Below, piece after piece: positions 5,763 through 15,927 of a stretch of 64,000 bases of DNA; the stretch's first letter is position 1; every line of letters begins with the position of its first letter. The notes below the pieces were generated by a model. That model was not told the origin of the DNA and made no database searches. It was given only the letters and a program-made list of their open reading frames with translations. The stretch spans positions 64,001 to 128,000 of IMG/VR virus record IMGVR_UViG_3300020470_001313. The stretch is one strand, 5' to 3'. The translations under genes were made by a program, and so were the position numbers. Source of the stretch: a virus.

Positions 5763-6548
5763 TTAAATTGCCTCATCTTGACCGCTAGTAGGATTACGCT
5801 TCTTACCGTCACCAAAATCTTCCCATGTTTCACCGAATCCAAAATCATCATCTGCATCAGCAGTGATAGGATCTGGTTGTACAGTATAGCGAACTTCTCT
5901 TGGTGCAGTACCAACATTGGTACTTGTATAAGAATCGGTAATAACCTTCTTGATTGTAGAGGATTCTTGTACAGGACCGTAGATGTATGTCTTAGCAGTA
6001 AAACTTAAAGTGTAAATGATTGCGCGACGAGTGGCAAAATTACCCTCATACTCATCATCATAGTCAATATTATTAATAACGACAGGAACATCCTTTGTTT
6101 CATTGAGTCCTGGGACCAACTTGAGGGGTAAGTTATAACTTGGCTGGAAATAAGGTAAAATCTGTTCCAGAATTTCAAGGCCGTCATCTTGATTTTTAGA
6201 TATAATTGCTAACTCAAATCCTACACTATATGGAACTGGCATATATGCCACCTTACTCTTATCTGAAGTACTTGTTACTGTTATCTTCTGAGTAGGACTA
6301 ACCTTTCTTGTAGGATCATAATCAATACTAGTTATCTCAAATGAGATTCTAGGAAGAGTAATACCTACTCTTTTGTTTGTTGGATCAGGAGTCTGTTCCA
6401 AACGTGCTAAAAACTTTTGCTTAGGACCATAAGCTAGAGGCACTTTCATGACCTCACTGCCTTGTTTGATCTCTATATTATTAAACAGAGTACCAAATCC
6501 AACAACGGTCTTTCTAAAGACTTCGTGATAAAAATATTTTCCTAGCAT
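5763..6548 (-). CDS. gp15: Tail sheath stabiliser / tail terminator
   Basis: YFYHE...FGTLFNNI, VPLAYGPKQKFLARL, LPRISFE, EQILPYFQP; synteny. Confidence 0.95.
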   Translation of the reverse strand: MLGKYFYHEVFRKTVVGFGTLFNNIEIKQGSEVMKVPLAYGPKQKFLARLEQTPDPTNKRVGITLPRISFEITSIDYDPTRKVSPTQKITVTSTSDKSKVAYMPVPYSVGFELAIISKNQDDGLEILEQILPYFQPSYNLPLKLVPGLNETKDVPVVINNIDYDDEYEGNFATRRAIIYTLSFTAKTYIYGPVQESSTIKKVITDSYTSTNVGTAPREVRYTVQPDPITADADDDFGFGETWEDFGDGKKRNPTSGQDEAI

Positions 6549-7708
6549 TAGATTGTTAAGTCAGTAGTAGAACCAATGGATCCAAATGGATTACCTTCGG
6601 AGAAATCAATAATGTCATCATCAGCTGTCTCAAATGTGTAGTTCTGGTCAACTTCACTATTAGTATTATCTATAGTATTATAAGATTCAGGACTCCAGAG
6701 AGCACCAGATGATTGACCTTTAATATTCTCTCCAGTATTAAATGTACCTGTACGATTTATAACTTGAAGTGTTCTAGTGCCAGCATCCCAAGATTTGACC
6801 TCTGCTTGTGTATCCTTCGGTGAATTACCAAAGGTTACAGTTGGTGCTGAAGTATATCCAGTACCAGCAGTATTTATAGTAACTCCAGTTACCAATCCTC
6901 CAGCAGATATTACAGCAGTTCCAGCAGCACCAGATCCACCTCCACCACTGAATGTTACAGTAGGAGCAGAAGTATAAAACTCACCACCATCAGTAATGGT
7001 AACACTGTCAACACCATCACCAGATATAGTAGCAGATCCAACGGCAGTATTAAGATCCCCAATGACAATCTCACCAACTGTAAAAGCACCAGACCCACCA
7101 GTACCCATGACAAACGCCGTGGAGTTACTAAAGGCGTATTCAATAGCATCAATGTCAGCAATACCAGTATCAAGATCTTCATTAGAGTACTCAAATATTT
7201 CGCATTGCATTTCCCAGACGTATCCTTTACCTAACTGGTAAAATGGTCTTTCTGCTTCTACGAATTTAATTTCAAATAAATGTTTTGTTGTCGGGAACCA
7301 AACTAAATCTCCTTCATTAGGTCTACCTTCAACATTTAATGTAACGTTATTATCAACCTTCTCAGTAAACTTTTCACGGGAAACAATAAAGGTTGTCTTG
7401 TCTTCTATTCTAACACCAAATTTAGTTAGGAGTTCTCCTTGTCCTTCCCAACCTTCAACGTTGTTAACATATGCTCTGATAGGATATGCATTATTAAATG
7501 TACTAGTATCTATCTCATCTAGAACATTATCTCTTCCAACATAGGTTCTAGGTAGATAATAAACATCTTGTCCATACAACTCAATAGACTCCACAACAAG
7601 ATTCTCCATGAACTTACGTTCTTGATCAGAACCATTAATGTTCAATCTACAGGCAGAACTGTAATCTGACTGTACACAATCTTTTGCTGGAGTGTTTGAG
7701 TATGCCAT
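6548..7708 (-). CDS. gp14: Neck protein
   Basis: ESIELYGQDVYYLPR, RPNEGDLVWFP, PFYQLGK and C-terminal DFSEGNPFG; carries an inserted Gly-rich beta module. Confidence 0.95.
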   Translation of the reverse strand: MAYSNTPAKDCVQSDYSSACRLNINGSDQERKFMENLVVESIELYGQDVYYLPRTYVGRDNVLDEIDTSTFNNAYPIRAYVNNVEGWEGQGELLTKFGVRIEDKTTFIVSREKFTEKVDNNVTLNVEGRPNEGDLVWFPTTKHLFEIKFVEAERPFYQLGKGYVWEMQCEIFEYSNEDLDTGIADIDAIEYAFSNSTAFVMGTGGSGAFTVGEIVIGDLNTAVGSATISGDGVDSVTITDGGEFYTSAPTVTFSGGGGSGAAGTAVISAGGLVTGVTINTAGTGYTSAPTVTFGNSPKDTQAEVKSWDAGTRTLQVINRTGTFNTGENIKGQSSGALWSPESYNTIDNTNSEVDQNYTFETADDDIIDFSEGNPFGSIGSTTDLTI

Positions 7709-8522: not shown

Positions 8523-11500
8523 TTAAGCGAATGAGGATATAGTCAAAGTAGTTACATCATTAGCAGCGACAGCTTCTCCAACCTTGAAGAATCCATCAAC
8601 ATTATCAACAGTAATTAAACTCGTACCCATAGCAGTGATAACTCCAGTAGTACCAGAGGTTGCTCCAGTTACTGTTGCACCAACTTCCATCGTTGTGATA
8701 TCAGCAAGTGCGAAGGTTGCATGAGTGAATACTGTAGCAGTATTAATCGTTGCGTTAGCAAAGATTGTAGCAATATCAATAGTTGAACTATTACCATGAA
8801 TAGCAGATACAGGTATCGTTGCACTGTTACCATGAATTGCAGAAACAGGAATGGTAGCACCATTACCATGAATAGCACCAACAGACAGGGTAGCAGTGCT
8901 ACCGTGGATAGCACCAACCGTAGTTGTTGCATTACCATGAATAGCAGCAACACCAGTAACTGCGTTACCATCTCCAGATCCATCAATTGTGATAGTGTCA
9001 GAAGCAGCATATCCAGTACCATCATTATTAATTACAGCACTTACTACGTGTCCAGATGAATTGGTAGTAATATCAAGAGTCAATCCAGTACCAGAGTTAT
9101 TAGTAGTTGTAGAAACACCAGTTATAGTTTGACTAGCAGGGTATCCAGTACCAGCTACCATTATTGAATTAAGAGTCTCAACACCAGTTGCATTAGCATT
9201 AGTTAATGTGATTGTATCTGATGCAGCATAACCAGAACCATCGTTAACGATAGTCATTCCAGTTACAGAACCAGATCCATTAACAGCAACAGTAACTGTT
9301 AATCCAGAACCAGATCCACCTGTTGTAGTTGCAACTGTGCCAGCAGAATAACCTGAAGCAGCAGCAGTAATAGAACCAAGTGTAGCAACACCAGATGCGT
9401 TAGCATTGGTGATTGTAATTGAATCACTATTAGCATAATTCAAACCATCATTATTAACTGTTACTCCAGTTACTCCACCAGATCCATTAACTGTAATGTC
9501 AACAGTTAAACCAGTACCAGATCCACCTGATGTGGTGGCAATTGCAGATCCCGCAGAATAACCACTACCAGCAGCAGTGATAGTTCCAAGTGTATTAACA
9601 CCAGATGCATTAGCGTTAGCAATCGTAATTACTTCAGAAGCAGCATATCCTGATCCATCATTGTTAATTGAAACACCATCAACAACACCGTTAGTAACAG
9701 TAACGTCAACAGTCAATCCAGTACCTGAACCAGATGATGTTGTTGCAAGAGCAGTACCTGTACCATATCCAGTACCGCCAGATGCAATTGAACCAAGTGT
9801 CTTAACACCAGATGCATTGGCATTGGTAATTGTAATTGTCTCAGCATTAGCATAACCAGATCCATCATCATTAATAGTTACTCCAGTTACGGCACCATTT
9901 CCATCAACTGTAATGTCAGCAGTTAATCCAGTACCAGATCCAGATGCAGTTGTTGCTATTCCAGATCCAGCAGCATAACCTGTTCCAGCAGTTGCAATAG
10001 AACCAAGAGTTCTAACACCTGTTGCATTTGCGTTAACAATAGTGATTGTGTCATCTACAGCATATCCTGTACCAGCAGCATTAATTGCTGCGTTAGTTAC
10101 AACACCATTAGATGTTGTAAGATTAAGTGTTAAACCTGATCCACTTCCTCCAGTAGTTGCAATAGCAGTTCCATTCGCATATCCTGTACCACCAACGAGA
10201 GTATCAACAGTGGAAGCACCACCAGCATTAGCATTAACAACTGTAATTGTTTCTCCGTTAGCGTATCCTGTACCTGGTGCGTTAACTGCAATGTTTGTAA
10301 TATTACCATTTCCATCAACAGTAGTGTCAAAGGTTAATCCAGATCCACTTCCACCTGTTGTAGCAACTCCTGTAGCAGAACTAAATCCACCAACACCACC
10401 TGATAATGTACCCAAGTTCAAGGTAGAAACACCACCAAGGTTAGGGTTAGTGATTTGTAGATTATCTCCAATTAAATATCCTGAACCAGCACCATTTACA
10501 GCAAGAGCAGTTATAGCACCAGCAGCATTGACTGTAGTATCAACTGTCAATCCAGTACCAGTACCACCAGATGTGGCAACAGCAGTTCCAGCACTGAATC
10601 CACCAAGACCACTAGCAGTGATTGATCCAAGACTTACAACAGTTCCTGGTGTAGGATCTCCAGATAGATTAAGTGTTAATGTTGTAGAAGTAGCAAGGTT
10701 GTTTAACATAGCACTAAGTTGTGCGTATGCATTATCAAGTTTTGCTTGAACTCTTGCTTCTGTATAGTAAAGGTTAGTTCCCTCAGCAAGATCAGCAGTA
10801 TCATGGTTGTTAAGGTTTGCTGCCTGAGTAGCAGTTGCAGGAGTAATATCTCCAGTACCATCAAAGGCAGTACCACCAATATTTCTTGCGGTTGCTAAAG
10901 CAGTTGCAGTTGCAGCATTTCCAGAGGTATCCTGATTACCCGCTGTATTAACGCCAGGAAGGTTTATAGCAGCAGTACCATCAAATGATACTCCACCAAT
11001 GTTTCTTGCCGTTTCAAGGGCAGTAGCAGTGTCTGCGTTACCTGTAACATCACCAGTCAAATTACCAGTCACATTACCTGTTATTGTACCACCTGCTTCA
11101 ATATCATCCGTCCAGATCTTACTCCATCTATGAGTAGTCGTTCCTAAAGTATAAGAACTATCTGTGTCAGGTTTAATATTCTTAGAATCTGTAGTTGCAG
11201 CAAGAAGGTTACCAGTTACATTACCAGTAACAGATCCAGTTAGTGATGCTGTAATAACACCAGCAGCAAAGTTACCCGATGCGTCACGAATGACTAGGTT
11301 GTTTGCAGAATTAGCAGAGTTAGATGTAATTGTAATACTTGGATCACCAGCAACACCACCACCATTTGTAATACCAATACCACCACCAGATACCTGAATG
11401 GTACGTTGAGCATAAGTGTTGGCAGCTGTACGGGCAACCAGACCTGTTCCACTCATTCCTGCCAAAGCAGTTATATCTGCATCATCATAGGTAGTAGTAA

Positions 11501-14500
11501 CCGTAAAGTCTGCACTACCATTAACTGAAACCGAACCATTTACTACACCATCAATGGTGAGAGTTCTAGCAGTTTTCCAAACATCAGCAGAAGTTGCGTT
11601 ACCTTGAATACCTGCACCAGCTCCAGCAGCACTTTCAACAGTGATGATATGAGCAGAGAAGTCTCCAGAAGAGTCACGAGCAACAACTGTAGAGTTTGTA
11701 GCAGCAGTTGCAGTTGTCATTCCATCTAACAAGTCTGCGTTAAGGTTAGTAATCTTAACTGTGTTAGGAATAACTAAAGCAGGACCAGAGGAAACTTGTG
11801 AAATTAATTGTCCGTCAACAGTAATAGTACCATCAACGTTTACGTTGTTATCTACATCAAGAGCAGTACCAGCACCAGTAATATTAACTGCACCAACCTG
11901 TAAAGTACCATCAGTTCCACTAAATGTCTCAGCACTATTGGTTGCGTCAGTTAAAAGTCTAAATGTATTGAGGTTGTTATCCCATCCAAGGAATCCAATT
12001 CTTGCAGCAGTATCGTAGTATCTAAACTCAATACCACGATCTAAACCATCATTAGAAGTAGGAGCAGTAGCACCACCAAGAGTCATTACGGGATCTTCTA
12101 CCGTAGTGACCGTACTTTCAACAGTAGTTGTAGATCCTAGTACGGTGAGGTTTCCACCCACTTGGAAATTATTTCTTACTTCAGCATTACCTGAAGATGT
12201 ATCTACAAAGAAACTATTCTGAGTTCCAACAGTATCATATACAATGAAATCTCCACCAGTGTAAAGGTTCTTATCTACTCTTGCACCACCAGCAGTTGTT
12301 AATGATACCTGAGCATCAGCAAAGGATGTAATATCCTTAGTATCTGTGATAGTAATCTTACCAGCAAATGCTGCATCATCAGTCTGAGTTAAAGTTCCTG
12401 TAGTTTCTAAGTTACCATAAACTCTTGCACTACCACCAATAGCAGTGTCTCTAGCAATACCAACACCACCAGTTACTTGTAATGAACCATCAGCAGCATA
12501 AGATCCTGTTAAGGTTTGCTGTGTGTTGTTAGTAATAGATGTAATACCAGTAACACCTAGAGTGTTGTTAATACCAGCAGCAAGAGATACGTCTAGTGTA
12601 CCTGAGATATTTGTATTACCATTATCAGTATCTACTGTAAACTTATCTACAGCACCAGCAGTCTGAATCTTGAACATCTTATTATCAGACTTGACAATAA
12701 GATCATCTTGAATAGTTGTAGCACCATCAACATTTAATGTGCTATCAAAATCAACTGCATCCTGACCATTCAGTGTACCTTTAATAATTGTATTACCAGT
12801 TGAAGATGCAACTGTAAATTTATCAGTAGTTCCAGATCTAACTGCAAAGTCATTATCTACATCTACAGTTCCATTGAACTCTGAATTATTTGTAACTTCT
12901 AATGTTCCACCAATAGTTGTATTACTATCAACGTTAAGAGTTGAATTTAACTCAGTGTGTCCATCAGCAGTTAGAGTACCCTCAATATTAGTATTACCAG
13001 TTACGTTGTCAACAAAGAACTTATCAGTTGTACCATTTCTAACTGCAAAGTCTGCATCTACGTCAACAGTACTATTAAATTCTGTGGCACCAGTTACAGT
13101 TACGTCACCATCTATTTGTACATCTCTACCAAGAGTAGTATCACCATGAACTGTGAATGTACCTACAGTTGCTGAACCAGTTGAAGATATACCAACAACT
13201 GTATTACCAGTAGGACCATCAACACTAAACTTAACTGTATCTCCAGAGTTTTTCTTACCTACAAATAAACCTTCTCCAGTACCAGTACCACCAATGTGTA
13301 ATGAAGTATTAATACCAGCACCACCATATACTCTTAAGTTAGAAGTGTTATGGTTTGAGTAACTTGGAGTGTATGCAGAAACAGAACCAGTACGTAATTT
13401 ATAACGTATTGATAGGTAGTTCCTTAAACCGTAGTTCTCAGTTGCGTCTTCTTGCTGGTTAAAGTCACCGTTAAGATATAAATCACCATTGAATAATACA
13501 TTCTTATCAAAGTATGCACCACCATCTACTCTTAATGCACCATAATCATTATTCTGAATTGAGTGAGGAGCACCAGATAGAATATCAGGATTATCTGTAG
13601 ACTCAAAATGAACAAGACCAGCTACATTTAACTGTGCAGCAGCATCAATATTACCAGTTTGATTTAATACACCACCAATGTCAACATTACCTGTAGTGGT
13701 ATGAAGTGTAGTCTTAGTAGTTCCTGAACCATTCTTAAGTTCTAAAGTCTTAGAAGCACCTTGGAATACAATATTATCATCAAATCTACTTGTACCATGA
13801 GTACGGAAGTTAGTATCTACATCTAACGTACCACCAATATTTACATCTTGTGTAATACCAACACCACCTGCAACTACCAAATCTCCAGTAGTATTAGATG
13901 TTGAGTTAGTATTTGTTGTTAGTTTTAAGTTACCAGCGATGACCCCTGCATCTGTTCCAGAGAATACCTCTGAGGTATTTGTGGCATCGTAGAGGAATGT
14001 GAATGCTCCTGTATGGCCTCCAAGATCAGCGGCCGAATCGTCGTAACCAAAGAATCCAATTTTTGCGCTTGCGTCGTAATATCTGAATTCAACTCCTCTA
14101 TCCTTATTGTCGTCTGACGCAGGAGCAGTATCCCCGCCAAGAGTAACGATAGGATCATCAACAGCAAGAGTGGTTGAATTAACCGTTGTAGTTGTTCCAT
14201 CTACTTGTAAATCTCCACTTACTACTACGGTTCCAGTGATCGCACGATCATCACCTGGATCCAAATACATTGTTGCATTACTAGTAGCAATATAATTGGT
14301 TTGTATTTTTACATCTTCTATATGAACTTTACCAGTTGCTTCAGTAGCATCAATAGTTACAGTATCTTCTGCTTGAATAACAACATTACTTGTTCCAGCA
14401 CCAGTATTAGCAGCAACAAGTGTTAGGTTTCTAGCATTAGCACTGTTCTGAGATATTCCAAGGGTGAAGTTTCCATCACCTGTCTTGCTTATTGTCTGAT

Positions 14501-15881
14501 TAGTTGCTCCATCAAATGTTACATCGGGGTCACTGAAGTAAGATCTGACGTTAATATCAATCTCTCCACTGCCACTGTCGCCAGTATTATTAGCACCGAA
14601 TAGAAGATTCCCTGAAGTATCGTTAATTTTAACATAGTTTAAATAATCAAATCCATGATGTGAACCAGCTACAGTTAATTCCTGATCTAGTTCAAAGTGT
14701 TGTTGCGTGTTGTTATCAGAGAAGGATATTCTATTGTTTTGAAGTTGAGTATTATCAACACCCAAAGCACTGATGCTGACATGACCGTTATCATCAACAT
14801 CAAAATCTTCCTGTGCAAAGGAAGCGAGACCTTTCTGTTCCGTCTTCGCCGCAGCAAGATATCTCCATCCTCCAGTATCAGAAGCATCCGTATGAGTAGG
14901 TGCGCCACCTCCAGACGCAATGCCTGTAATAGCCTGATAAACCTTCGTAGCGTTCTCAATAATATCGTAACGTACATATGTTGTACCTGCATTATAAGCA
15001 GCATACTTACTACCTTCTATTGCAGTAGCAATAGGAATAGTTTCTGCTGAAGTAAATCTACCCCACTGATCAACTGTGAATTGTGTTGTGTTTACAGTTA
15101 TATCAGAGTTAGTTGGAAGATCATCACCACCAACTGAAATAAGAGCTGGAGCATTATATGCACCAACATTAGCAATGAACTCTGCTTCTGATGCAATAGT
15201 TGTATCAATAAGGTCAATAGTTGGGTTACCAGCTACACCACTACCATTAACAATAGAAATCTTACCAGAAGAACCCTGAAGAGTTCTAGGAATCATATTA
15301 CCTGCTGATGCCCTAGTAATCAAACCTGTTGCAGTCATTCCTGCAATAGATGTTAAGTCAGTATCTAATGGTTGTACGTCTGTTAAACCGAGATCAACAT
15401 AAGAAGAAGGTGAAGCACCTGTAGTAATCCTACCTTTCGCGTCTACTGTTACCTTTGTATATTGCCCTGAAGAAGTTGTTGTACCATCATAATGTGGTAA
15501 TGTAGTTAAGATCTGTAATTGTGCCGATATTGATAAGTTAGAAGATCCATCAAATGTGCCCGAACCTGCTAAGTCACTTGATAACTGTATCTGACGTGGG
15601 TTTGCTAGTCTGGATGCTGTAGCAGCATTACCGATAACAGTTGCGGTGATAGATCCTGCACTAAAATTACCGTCTGCGTCCCTTGCGACAAGAGTGTTTG
15701 CTGTGTTAGCAACTGACTCTATCGGTCTAGCATATGGCAGCGTGTTCCAACCCCTAACACCATCACCAATTTTGAATCGGTTTGTATCAAGTTCAATTCC
15801 AAGTTCACCTTGGGCTAACGTTGGGTTTTCGTTTGCCCACTCTTGAGCACCCCCTCGTCTTAGTTGAATTCTATTAGCCAT
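8523..15881 (-). CDS. Long fibre protein (2,452 aa) at the position just upstream of gp13
   Basis: Mtd/hyaluronidase-type N-terminus (RIQLRRG...W...NPTLAQGELGIELDT..FKIGDG); fibre repeats (GNLTV.GTTT.V.S...V.DP...DRG; GNA.TAT.L.TAR.IGG..FDG); C-terminal Gly-rich modules. Confidence 0.88.
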   Translation of the reverse strand: MANRIQLRRGGAQEWANENPTLAQGELGIELDTNRFKIGDGVRGWNTLPYARPIESVANTANTLVARDADGNFSAGSITATVIGNAATASRLANPRQIQLSSDLAGSGTFDGSSNLSISAQLQILTTLPHYDGTTTSSGQYTKVTVDAKGRITTGASPSSYVDLGLTDVQPLDTDLTSIAGMTATGLITRASAGNMIPRTLQGSSGKISIVNGSGVAGNPTIDLIDTTIASEAEFIANVGAYNAPALISVGGDDLPTNSDITVNTTQFTVDQWGRFTSAETIPIATAIEGSKYAAYNAGTTYVRYDIIENATKVYQAITGIASGGGAPTHTDASDTGGWRYLAAAKTEQKGLASFAQEDFDVDDNGHVSISALGVDNTQLQNNRISFSDNNTQQHFELDQELTVAGSHHGFDYLNYVKINDTSGNLLFGANNTGDSGSGEIDINVRSYFSDPDVTFDGATNQTISKTGDGNFTLGISQNSANARNLTLVAANTGAGTSNVVIQAEDTVTIDATEATGKVHIEDVKIQTNYIATSNATMYLDPGDDRAITGTVVVSGDLQVDGTTTTVNSTTLAVDDPIVTLGGDTAPASDDNKDRGVEFRYYDASAKIGFFGYDDSAADLGGHTGAFTFLYDATNTSEVFSGTDAGVIAGNLKLTTNTNSTSNTTGDLVVAGGVGITQDVNIGGTLDVDTNFRTHGTSRFDDNIVFQGASKTLELKNGSGTTKTTLHTTTGNVDIGGVLNQTGNIDAAAQLNVAGLVHFESTDNPDILSGAPHSIQNNDYGALRVDGGAYFDKNVLFNGDLYLNGDFNQQEDATENYGLRNYLSIRYKLRTGSVSAYTPSYSNHNTSNLRVYGGAGINTSLHIGGTGTGEGLFVGKKNSGDTVKFSVDGPTGNTVVGISSTGSATVGTFTVHGDTTLGRDVQIDGDVTVTGATEFNSTVDVDADFAVRNGTTDKFFVDNVTGNTNIEGTLTADGHTELNSTLNVDSNTTIGGTLEVTNNSEFNGTVDVDNDFAVRSGTTDKFTVASSTGNTIIKGTLNGQDAVDFDSTLNVDGATTIQDDLIVKSDNKMFKIQTAGAVDKFTVDTDNGNTNISGTLDVSLAAGINNTLGVTGITSITNNTQQTLTGSYAADGSLQVTGGVGIARDTAIGGSARVYGNLETTGTLTQTDDAAFAGKITITDTKDITSFADAQVSLTTAGGARVDKNLYTGGDFIVYDTVGTQNSFFVDTSSGNAEVRNNFQVGGNLTVLGSTTTVESTVTTVEDPVMTLGGATAPTSNDGLDRGIEFRYYDTAARIGFLGWDNNLNTFRLLTDATNSAETFSGTDGTLQVGAVNITGAGTALDVDNNVNVDGTITVDGQLISQVSSGPALVIPNTVKITNLNADLLDGMTTATAATNSTVVARDSSGDFSAHIITVESAAGAGAGIQGNATSADVWKTARTLTIDGVVNGSVSVNGSADFTVTTTYDDADITALAGMSGTGLVARTAANTYAQRTIQVSGGGIGITNGGGVAGDPSITITSNSANSANNLVIRDASGNFAAGVITASLTGSVTGNVTGNLLAATTDSKNIKPDTDSSYTLGTTTHRWSKIWTDDIEAGGTITGNVTGNLTGDVTGNADTATALETARNIGGVSFDGTAAINLPGVNTAGNQDTSGNAATATALATARNIGGTAFDGTGDITPATATQAANLNNHDTADLAEGTNLYYTEARVQAKLDNAYAQLSAMLNNLATSTTLTLNLSGDPTPGTVVSLGSITASGLGGFSAGTAVATSGGTGTGLTVDTTVNAAGAITALAVNGAGSGYLIGDNLQITNPNLGGVSTLNLGTLSGGVGGFSSATGVATTGGSGSGLTFDTTVDGNGNITNIAVNAPGTGYANGETITVVNANAGGASTVDTLVGGTGYANGTAIATTGGSGSGLTLNLTTSNGVVTNAAINAAGTGYAVDDTITIVNANATGVRTLGSIATAGTGYAAGSGIATTASGSGTGLTADITVDGNGAVTGVTINDDGSGYANAETITITNANASGVKTLGSIASGGTGYGTGTALATTSSGSGTGLTVDVTVTNGVVDGVSINNDGSGYAASEVITIANANASGVNTLGTITAAGSGYSAGSAIATTSGGSGTGLTVDITVNGSGGVTGVTVNNDGLNYANSDSITITNANASGVATLGSITAAASGYSAGTVATTTGGSGSGLTVTVAVNGSGSVTGMTIVNDGSGYAASDTITLTNANATGVETLNSIMVAGTGYPASQTITGVSTTTNNSGTGLTLDITTNSSGHVVSAVINNDGTGYAASDTITIDGSGDGNAVTGVAAIHGNATTTVGAIHGSTATLSVGAIHGNGATIPVSAIHGNSATIPVSAIHGNSSTIDIATIFANATINTATVFTHATFALADITTMEVGATVTGATSGTTGVITAMGTSLITVDNVDGFFKVGEAVAANDVTTLTISSFA
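8691..10649 (-). repeat. Eight ~70-aa Gly-rich beta modules followed by eight 11-12-aa closing segments (nested repeat)
   Basis: GVxTLGSI..AGTGY...TTxGSGTGLTVD...V..NDGSGY...TITI.NANAx x8, then NAxxxVxAIHG-like segments x8. Confidence 0.85.
13925..14200 (-). CDS. Candidate overprinted gene C (+1 frame in the fibre): TM anchor plus coiled coil, 91 aa
   Basis: MEQLQRLIQPLLLLMILSLLLAGILLLRQTTIRIEELNSDITTQAQKLDSLVTTI...; clean heptad pattern; GGAG 12 nt upstream; host-frame GC3 about 34% versus about 11-14% in flanks (hand count). Confidence 0.55.
   Translation of the reverse strand: MEQLQRLIQPLLLLMILSLLLAGILLLRQTTIRIEELNSDITTQAQKLDSLVTTIRPLILEAIQEHSHSSTMPQIPQRYSLEQMQGSSLVT
14519..14635 (-). 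CDS. Candidate overprinted gene B (+1 frame in the fibre): 38-aa single-TM peptide
   Basis: Hand translation MLKLTILQGIFYSVLIILATVAVERLILTSDLTSVTPM; host-frame GC3 13/39. Confidence 0.35.
   Translation of the reverse strand: MLKLTILQGIFYSVLIILATVAVERLILTSDLTSVTPM
14687..15004 (-). CDS. Candidate overprinted gene A (+1 frame in the fibre): amphipathic/basic N-region plus one TM, 105 aa
   Basis: LLRTLRRFIRLLQALRL...RRRRNRK...ILMLMITVMSASVLWVLIILNF; many Arg residues arise from rare GCG/ACG codons in the fibre frame; AAGGT/AGGT 7 nt before the ATGs at 15004 and 14977. Confidence 0.5.
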   Translation of the reverse strand: MLLIMQVQHMYVTILLRTLRRFIRLLQALRLEVAHLLIRMLLILEDGDILLRRRRNRKVSLPLHRKILMLMITVMSASVLWVLIILNFKTIEYPSLITTRNNTLN

Positions 15882-15919: not shown

Positions 15920-15927
15920 TATTTATA
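15920..15927 (-). promoter_or_regulatory. T4-type late promoter TATAAATA
   Basis: Perfect gp55 consensus about 40 nt upstream of the fibre start. Confidence 0.85.

Follow-up and report, generated by a model that had tools for sequence, protein, structure and literature searches.

A candidate overprinted gene for a small membrane protein in the +1 frame of a tail-fibre gene of T4-like cyanophages

The DNA analysed here (the window) is a stretch of 64,000 nucleotides, positions 64,001 to 128,000 of the IMG/VR record IMGVR_UViG_3300020470_001313. This 150.6-kb record comes from an uncultured virus, is estimated to be 85% complete, and is related to the T4-like cyanomyoviruses that infect Prochlorococcus and Synechococcus. 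On the minus strand of the window, from 8523 to 15881, lies a gene for a tail-fibre or structural protein of 2452 amino acids (aa), identified from the list of open reading frames (ORFs) and from the annotation of relatives; in cultured relatives it is labelled 'YadA domain-containing structural protein' (T4-GC 402) or 'fiber', and no inner ORF is annotated within it in any of the cultured relatives compared. The subject of this study is such an inner frame, ORF C, which occupies 13925–14200 of the minus strand in the +1 frame of the fibre gene and comprises 91 codons plus a TAA stop. We consider it probable, at roughly 65%, that ORF C is a genuine gene of recent origin, overprinted on the fibre gene and coding for a small bitopic membrane protein.

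The start codon of ORF C, an ATG at 14198–14200, is made by the fibre codons GAT|GGA (Asp-Gly), and its stop codon lies at 13925–13927, giving a product of 91 aa. The same frame is closed just upstream, within 14201–14227 of the minus strand, by the stacked stops TAG TAG TAA (14219–14227) and by a further TAG (14201–14203), so that read-in from upstream in this frame is excluded. A Shine–Dalgarno (SD)-like tetramer, GGAG, is located at 14213–14216 (minus strand), 12 nt 5' of the ATG. The initial annotation of this DNA had given the coordinates, the +1 offset, the stacked stops and the GGAG, and on re-checking all of them were found as claimed.

ORF C overlies a fibre domain of about 90 aa that is present in two paralogous copies, at 13800–14321 and at about 11870–12131, both on the minus strand. 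The second copy served as a negative control: read from about 12131 downward, its +1 frame is closed by seven stops. The fibre protein sequence thus does not force the frame open, as had been argued in the initial annotation. The domain itself (…DDP[IV][VM]TLGG.TAP…RG[VI]EFRYYD…) is the best-conserved protein stretch of this part of the gene across >500 viral contigs, and gave no match in Pfam.

A good part of what is conspicuous in ORF C can be explained by base composition. The third codon positions of the fibre gene are 55% T, and each fibre wobble base serves as the second base of a +1-frame codon. The +1 frame is accordingly Leu-rich and transmembrane (TM)-like, containing 29% Leu, 11% Val and 7% Ile and 28 TM-like segments. 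Since the +1 frame of this one gene yields 28 such runs, the hydrophobic run of ORF C is not evidence for a gene, and we discarded both the TM run and the Leu content as arguments for it. When synonymous codons were shuffled, a +1 run of 91 codons or more without a stop appeared somewhere in the fibre gene in 49% of the shuffles, and the stretch of ORF C itself was open in 0.9%, the expected number of stops there being 3.7. As an internal control we used ORF A (14687–15004, minus strand), another +1-frame ORF of the same fibre gene that, with 105 aa, is longer than ORF C.

To follow conservation of the frame, we collected 160 homologous segments of the fibre domain (117 unique) from phages in IMG/VR and GenBank and examined a tree of this region. 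One clade (the ORF clade) comprises 69 unique sequences, those of P-SSM7, P-SSM4, P-SSM3 and P-RSM1 among them, and every one has the same ATG and no premature stop; in subclade B the ORF ends 5–6 codons earlier, at a stop created by ATA|A. In the sister group, which consists of seven unique sequences of the S-RIM8 and S-RIM50 type, the ATG has been lost (GAC) and the frame is open for 130–146 codons from an upstream ATG, predicting a two-TM version with a basic loop; examples of this variant are L017, L020, L024, L144 and L146, around locus positions 1380–1900, and in one sister sequence, L067, the frame is broken. The remaining clades have two to five stops in all 41 sequences. The control ORF A is open in three of 23 clade A relatives and in none of 18 clade B relatives; judged by these sequences, its frame is not conserved. 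It has no match in PHROG and behaves as a composition artefact.

Stops in the phase of ORF C are possible only at fibre codons for Val, Ile or Leu that end in A with a purine next, or in G before A. At such stop-capable sites in the genomes of the ORF clade, wobble A occurred in at least one genome at two of ten sites inside ORF C vs 106 of 114 sites outside it in the same genomes (Fisher P = 5e-7), where 32% of the codons have wobble A. Of the two inside sites, one does not yield a stop where it stands and the second gives the truncation of subclade B. Sites for Val and Leu inside ORF C that are not stop-capable (n = 2) have 56% wobble A. By parsimony, the ratio of T/C-to-A to T/C-to-T/C wobble changes is 1:42 at the stop-capable sites inside ORF C and 139:220 at those outside. 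In simulations of wobble evolution that began with an open ancestor and used the local tree, with rates set on either side of that of the local 4-fold sites, stop alleles are expected at 5.8–7.9 of the ten sites, and one was observed (P ≤ 0.002), while 29–50% of the simulated tips are open vs 100% of the observed ones (to codon 86). A dN/dS estimate of the OLGenie type (non-synonymous over synonymous rates) is unsuitable here, as almost no sites in this phase are synonymous in both frames. As far as sequences can tell, these comparative statistics show that the frame of ORF C is kept by purifying selection. The initial annotation had made its proposal depend on conservation of the ORF, and the conservation found exceeds both that of the tree simulation and that of control sites in the same gene.

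The fibre gene bears a corresponding mark in its synonymous variation, which was measured in 91-codon intervals over 1170 aligned codons. In clade A the interval of minimum synonymous diversity begins at codon index 537, and ORF C begins at 540; its value is 0.203, vs a minimum of 0.279 and a median of 0.365 among intervals that do not overlap ORF C. The dip in subclade B is weaker, ranking in the lowest 9% of intervals. At 4-fold codons over ORF C residues 29–91, wobble A reaches 57% in clade A and 53% in clade B, compared with 32–36% elsewhere, and the 63-codon interval richest in wobble A in the whole gene begins at codon indices 572 and 578, respectively, in the part that follows the TM segment. 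The closed-frame clade C has the wobble-A minimum of the gene in this very stretch, with 15% wobble A and 71% wobble T. Over the TM part of ORF C, the fibre wobble stays T or C across the clade, and wobble T is retained. Read in the ORF C frame, where the fibre wobble base falls at codon position two, such a pattern encodes a protein that is first hydrophobic and then hydrophilic. Wobble A is therefore enriched where it would write polar residues of ORF C and absent where it would write a stop, and we found no explanation for this that does without selection on the +1 frame. What speaks for an overprinted gene is thus an alternative-frame ORF that its host gene does not force, an openness beyond that given by phylogeny and composition, and a patterned synonymous variation in the host gene.

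The start of ORF C is conserved as well. The Asp codon that supplies it is GAT in 48 of 48 ORF-clade tips, and most Asp codons nearby alternate between GAT and GAC. At the SD-like site, GGAG, GGGG, AGGA, GAGG or GGTG is found in all 69 unique ORF-clade sequences, owing to a purine in the wobble position of a Gly codon; in other clades this codon is mostly GGT, and an SD-like tetramer is still present in 28 of their 41 sequences and absent from 13. A motif matching the T4-type late-promoter consensus, TATAAATA, lies at 15920–15927 (minus strand), 39 nt 5' of the fibre ATG. Three further motifs of this type occur on the minus strand at 2234, 6871 and 25458, and their total in the window shows no excess over chance. 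The motif scan of the window revealed no T4-type late promoter directly before ORF C, which would therefore be read from the late fibre mRNA. Its translation would be by internal initiation at its own ATG, because that ATG is conserved, SD-like purines precede it, stops lie just upstream, and the ORF has no promoter of its own. ORF C probably originated in the ancestor of a single cyanomyovirus clade, by overprinting of the conserved fibre domain in its +1 frame, and its restriction to that clade suggests that it is evolutionarily young.

The predicted product is a bitopic inner-membrane protein of 86–92 aa, in which a single TM helix would join a short basic N-terminal tail in the cytoplasm to an external part made up of an acidic helix of about 40 residues and a floppy tail. 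The predicted TM segment (residues 11–27, LLLLMILSLLLAGILLL; 14120–14170, minus strand) has a Kyte–Doolittle hydropathy peak of 2.57 and is modelled as a helix with a predicted local distance difference test score (pLDDT) >90. It is followed by a polar, heptad-like helix of net negative charge (residues 31–69; 13994–14110, minus strand), predicted to be periplasmic, and by a C-terminal tail predicted to be disordered (residues 70–91; 13928–13993, minus strand; pLDDT <50), which holds the invariant Pro73. AlphaFold2, run with a 33-sequence alignment, gave one helix covering residues 2–69, with pLDDT >90 for about residues 11–60. In all 33 variants the net charge is 0 to +4 in the N-terminal tail and −1 to −8 in the C-terminal part, an asymmetry that fits an N-in/C-out orientation. 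The a and d positions of the heptad are 64% LIVMF vs 18% elsewhere, a difference that is borderline against shuffles (P = 0.05). Of the architecture proposed at the outset, the short N-terminal tail and the single TM helix running into a polar helix, here to residue 69, are thus recovered in the model; the regular heptad is borderline.

Searches with ORF C led back almost entirely to its own locus. In Pfam (E ≤ 1), ORF C and the surrounding fibre segment gave nothing above the cut-off and only two sub-threshold matches, DUF4083 and DUF4577. No match was obtained among 5.8 billion proteins in a word-indexed search. When 1.84 billion representative proteins were searched with a profile, six matches were returned, of which four are plainly from this locus: a clean 91-aa call (P0002), a 141-aa call of the sister type, and two chimeras of the fibre and ORF C frames. 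The other two are a chimeric-looking call of 100 aa and a more distant, +1-frame-like ORF of 133 aa; stand-alone homologues of ORF C and spanins were absent from the matches of this search. The public gene calls P0003, P0004 and P0006 pass from one of the two frames, fibre and ORF C, to the other; indel errors in metagenome assemblies are the most likely cause of these chimeras. A feature search of the ESM Atlas gave no usable match, and a profile search of the PDB gave one at chance level (E = 0.19). Our literature search on cyanophage overlapping genes, spanins and ribosome profiling yielded nothing relevant, and nothing on profiling of cyanophage infection.

Several observations weigh against reading ORF C as a gene with a membrane function. 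No other protein stretch in this part of the gene is as conserved as the fibre domain beneath it. Closed clade C also shows a slight dip in synonymous diversity over the ORF C stretch (0.402 vs a median of 0.438), and because the frame is closed there, part of the dip must belong to the fibre domain. All open sequences fall in one clade and its sister, so that the signal is that of a single origin followed by retention. The ORF C protein diverges faster than the fibre, its TM region varies, and its identity to the ORF C of the window is 44–59% in subclade B, the L030/L031 pair, L061/L063 and L059. The SD-like motif stands at a long spacing, 12 nt from the ATG, and lends the start weak support. 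Neither the word-indexed nor the profile search detected a homologue outside this locus, and any functional guess draws on architecture and on PHROG matches that lie under any safe threshold.

Some of these points would suit a different explanation, namely that ORF C has no function and results from wobble positions rich in T, being open in the clade only because the module is young or has been homogenised by recombination. The Leu-rich, TM-like composition of the +1 frame, the ease with which long open runs appear in shuffles and the single origin of the open sequences agree with it, as does the fact that the local tree is about 40% shorter than those of other blocks and that fibre protein diversity is also lowest over ORF C. 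However, a shorter tree lowers all changes equally, and here only the stop-making changes are missing: wobble A is common in the same stretch, at 46% of 4-fold codons as well as at the Val and Leu sites that are not stop-capable. The simulation, moreover, was made on that local tree and at the local rate, and ORF A has decayed in the same genomes. The flip of wobble A from the lowest to the highest level in the gene also coincides with the soluble part of ORF C. We therefore regard a non-functional frame as unlikely. Far less likely still is that the constraint is real and comes from an RNA element, or from a +1 frameshift producing a short fibre isoform with a tail encoded by ORF C. Either would account for the lowered synonymous diversity and for a sister clade in which the frame is open without the ORF C ATG. 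Yet the stretch has no match in Rfam and folds no better than shuffled sequences (z = −0.2), and an RNA element would not selectively remove stops in one phase. As for a frameshift, stops lie 1–7 codons upstream of the ORF C ATG, the codon table, as we read it, shows no conserved slippery run in the clade, none of the 48 tips has lost the ATG, and the sister clade has an upstream ATG of its own.

If ORF C is a gene, the identity proposed for its product in the initial annotation, an inner spanin (i-spanin) or an FtsL/FtsB mimic, did not hold up well, and we consider it quite unlikely. Its attraction lies in the predicted type II topology followed by a helical, heptad-like segment, and in the profile PHROG 739 ('Rz-like spanin'), which is matched by 22 of 33 ORF C variants (best E = 4e-4); four of the 33 match PHROG 214. 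Nine control alternative-frame ORFs of the same fibre gene had no match in PHROG. The role might also be vacant, as the 150.6-kb record has no member of the Rz (PF03245) or T-holin (PF11031) families. Nevertheless, the PHROG matches listed are weak, at 14.5–19 bits over profile positions 6–56 only, and none was obtained for the subclade B (L003) and P-SSM4-type (L059) sequences tested; on sequence grounds they suggest a lead, not membership. The Rz-like profiles total 122 and 176 positions, whereas ORF C has only about 61 residues beyond the TM segment. An outer-membrane partner (o-spanin) was not found in the remaining frame over ORF C, which is full of stops, and the setting of ORF C, within a fibre gene whose neighbours are virion-structural, is not that of a lysis cassette. 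Pfam gave no Rz, FtsL or DivIC match, and so neither the spanin nor the FtsL/FtsB identity is borne out. That no o-spanin partner lies nearby, as the initial annotation noted, proved correct: no lipobox ORF was found in 8–24 kb of the window, and no convincing one in the whole record. The sole strict-pattern lipobox match in the record is a 38-aa ORF at 7519–7635 (minus strand), out of frame inside a 386-aa gene at 6548–7708; as a partner it was rejected as probably spurious, having a mature part of 18 aa and lying 6.5 kb away.

Known systems offer partial likenesses. With the Rz-type i-spanins ORF C shares a predicted N-in/C-out single TM segment followed by a helix, to which the weak profile matches extend, but its periplasmic part is about half the usual length, and it differs in the points of partner, cassette, PF03245 and match strength given above. 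Like FtsL, FtsB and DivIC it is predicted to cross the membrane once, between a short tail in the cytoplasm and a heptad-like helix; unlike them it has a borderline heptad, a helix carrying a conserved Pro in most clade A variants, and no Pfam match other than the two sub-threshold DUFs. T4 antiholin RI, which is 97 aa long, and the single-TM (class III) holins are likewise small and combine a single membrane helix at the N-terminus with a periplasmic domain that is largely helical, and ORF C is predicted to be late as they are. However, it shows no sequence match to them and has no known partner, and PF11031 is absent from the record. The closest parallel in gene arrangement is with phiX174 E inside gene D and lambda Rz1 inside Rz, where a small ORF is contained entirely within a bona fide gene, in the +1 frame, the hydrophobic segment of the small ORF is written by T at the wobble positions of the host gene, and the product is small, late and membrane-targeted, as predicted for ORF C. 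The E protein of phiX174 has 91 aa, the same length as ORF C, with an N-terminal TM helix. In contrast to these, ORF C lies in a 7.4-kb tail-fibre gene of a myovirus of roughly 170 kb that is under no compaction pressure, has no sequence similarity to either, is restricted to one clade, and is known from sequence alone.

For the overprinted membrane protein that we favour, our best guess at a function is a late role at the membrane, in lysis timing or envelope disruption, that may be holin-, antiholin- or spanin-like. This guess comes from its likely late production together with virion proteins, as with most small late phage membrane proteins, and from the weak likeness to Rz profiles. A fuller proposal makes ORF C a lysis or envelope protein that marine T4-like cyanophages gained de novo when a tail-fibre domain was overprinted, that every annotation has missed, and that supplies part of their lysis machinery; we consider this unlikely.

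T4-like cyanomyoviruses kill a large share of ocean Prochlorococcus and Synechococcus, and to our knowledge their lysis and envelope-disruption genes are largely unidentified. ORF C is a concrete candidate, which could be removed by changes that are silent in the fibre protein. If the interpretation is true, ORF C would join the few documented examples of overprinting in large double-stranded DNA phages, present in the model phages P-SSM4, P-SSM7, P-SSM3 and P-RSM1, and would illustrate how the wobble positions of an older gene can be used to write a de novo one. Hidden frames in phage genes rich in wobble T merit comparative screening rather than dismissal as artefacts of composition.

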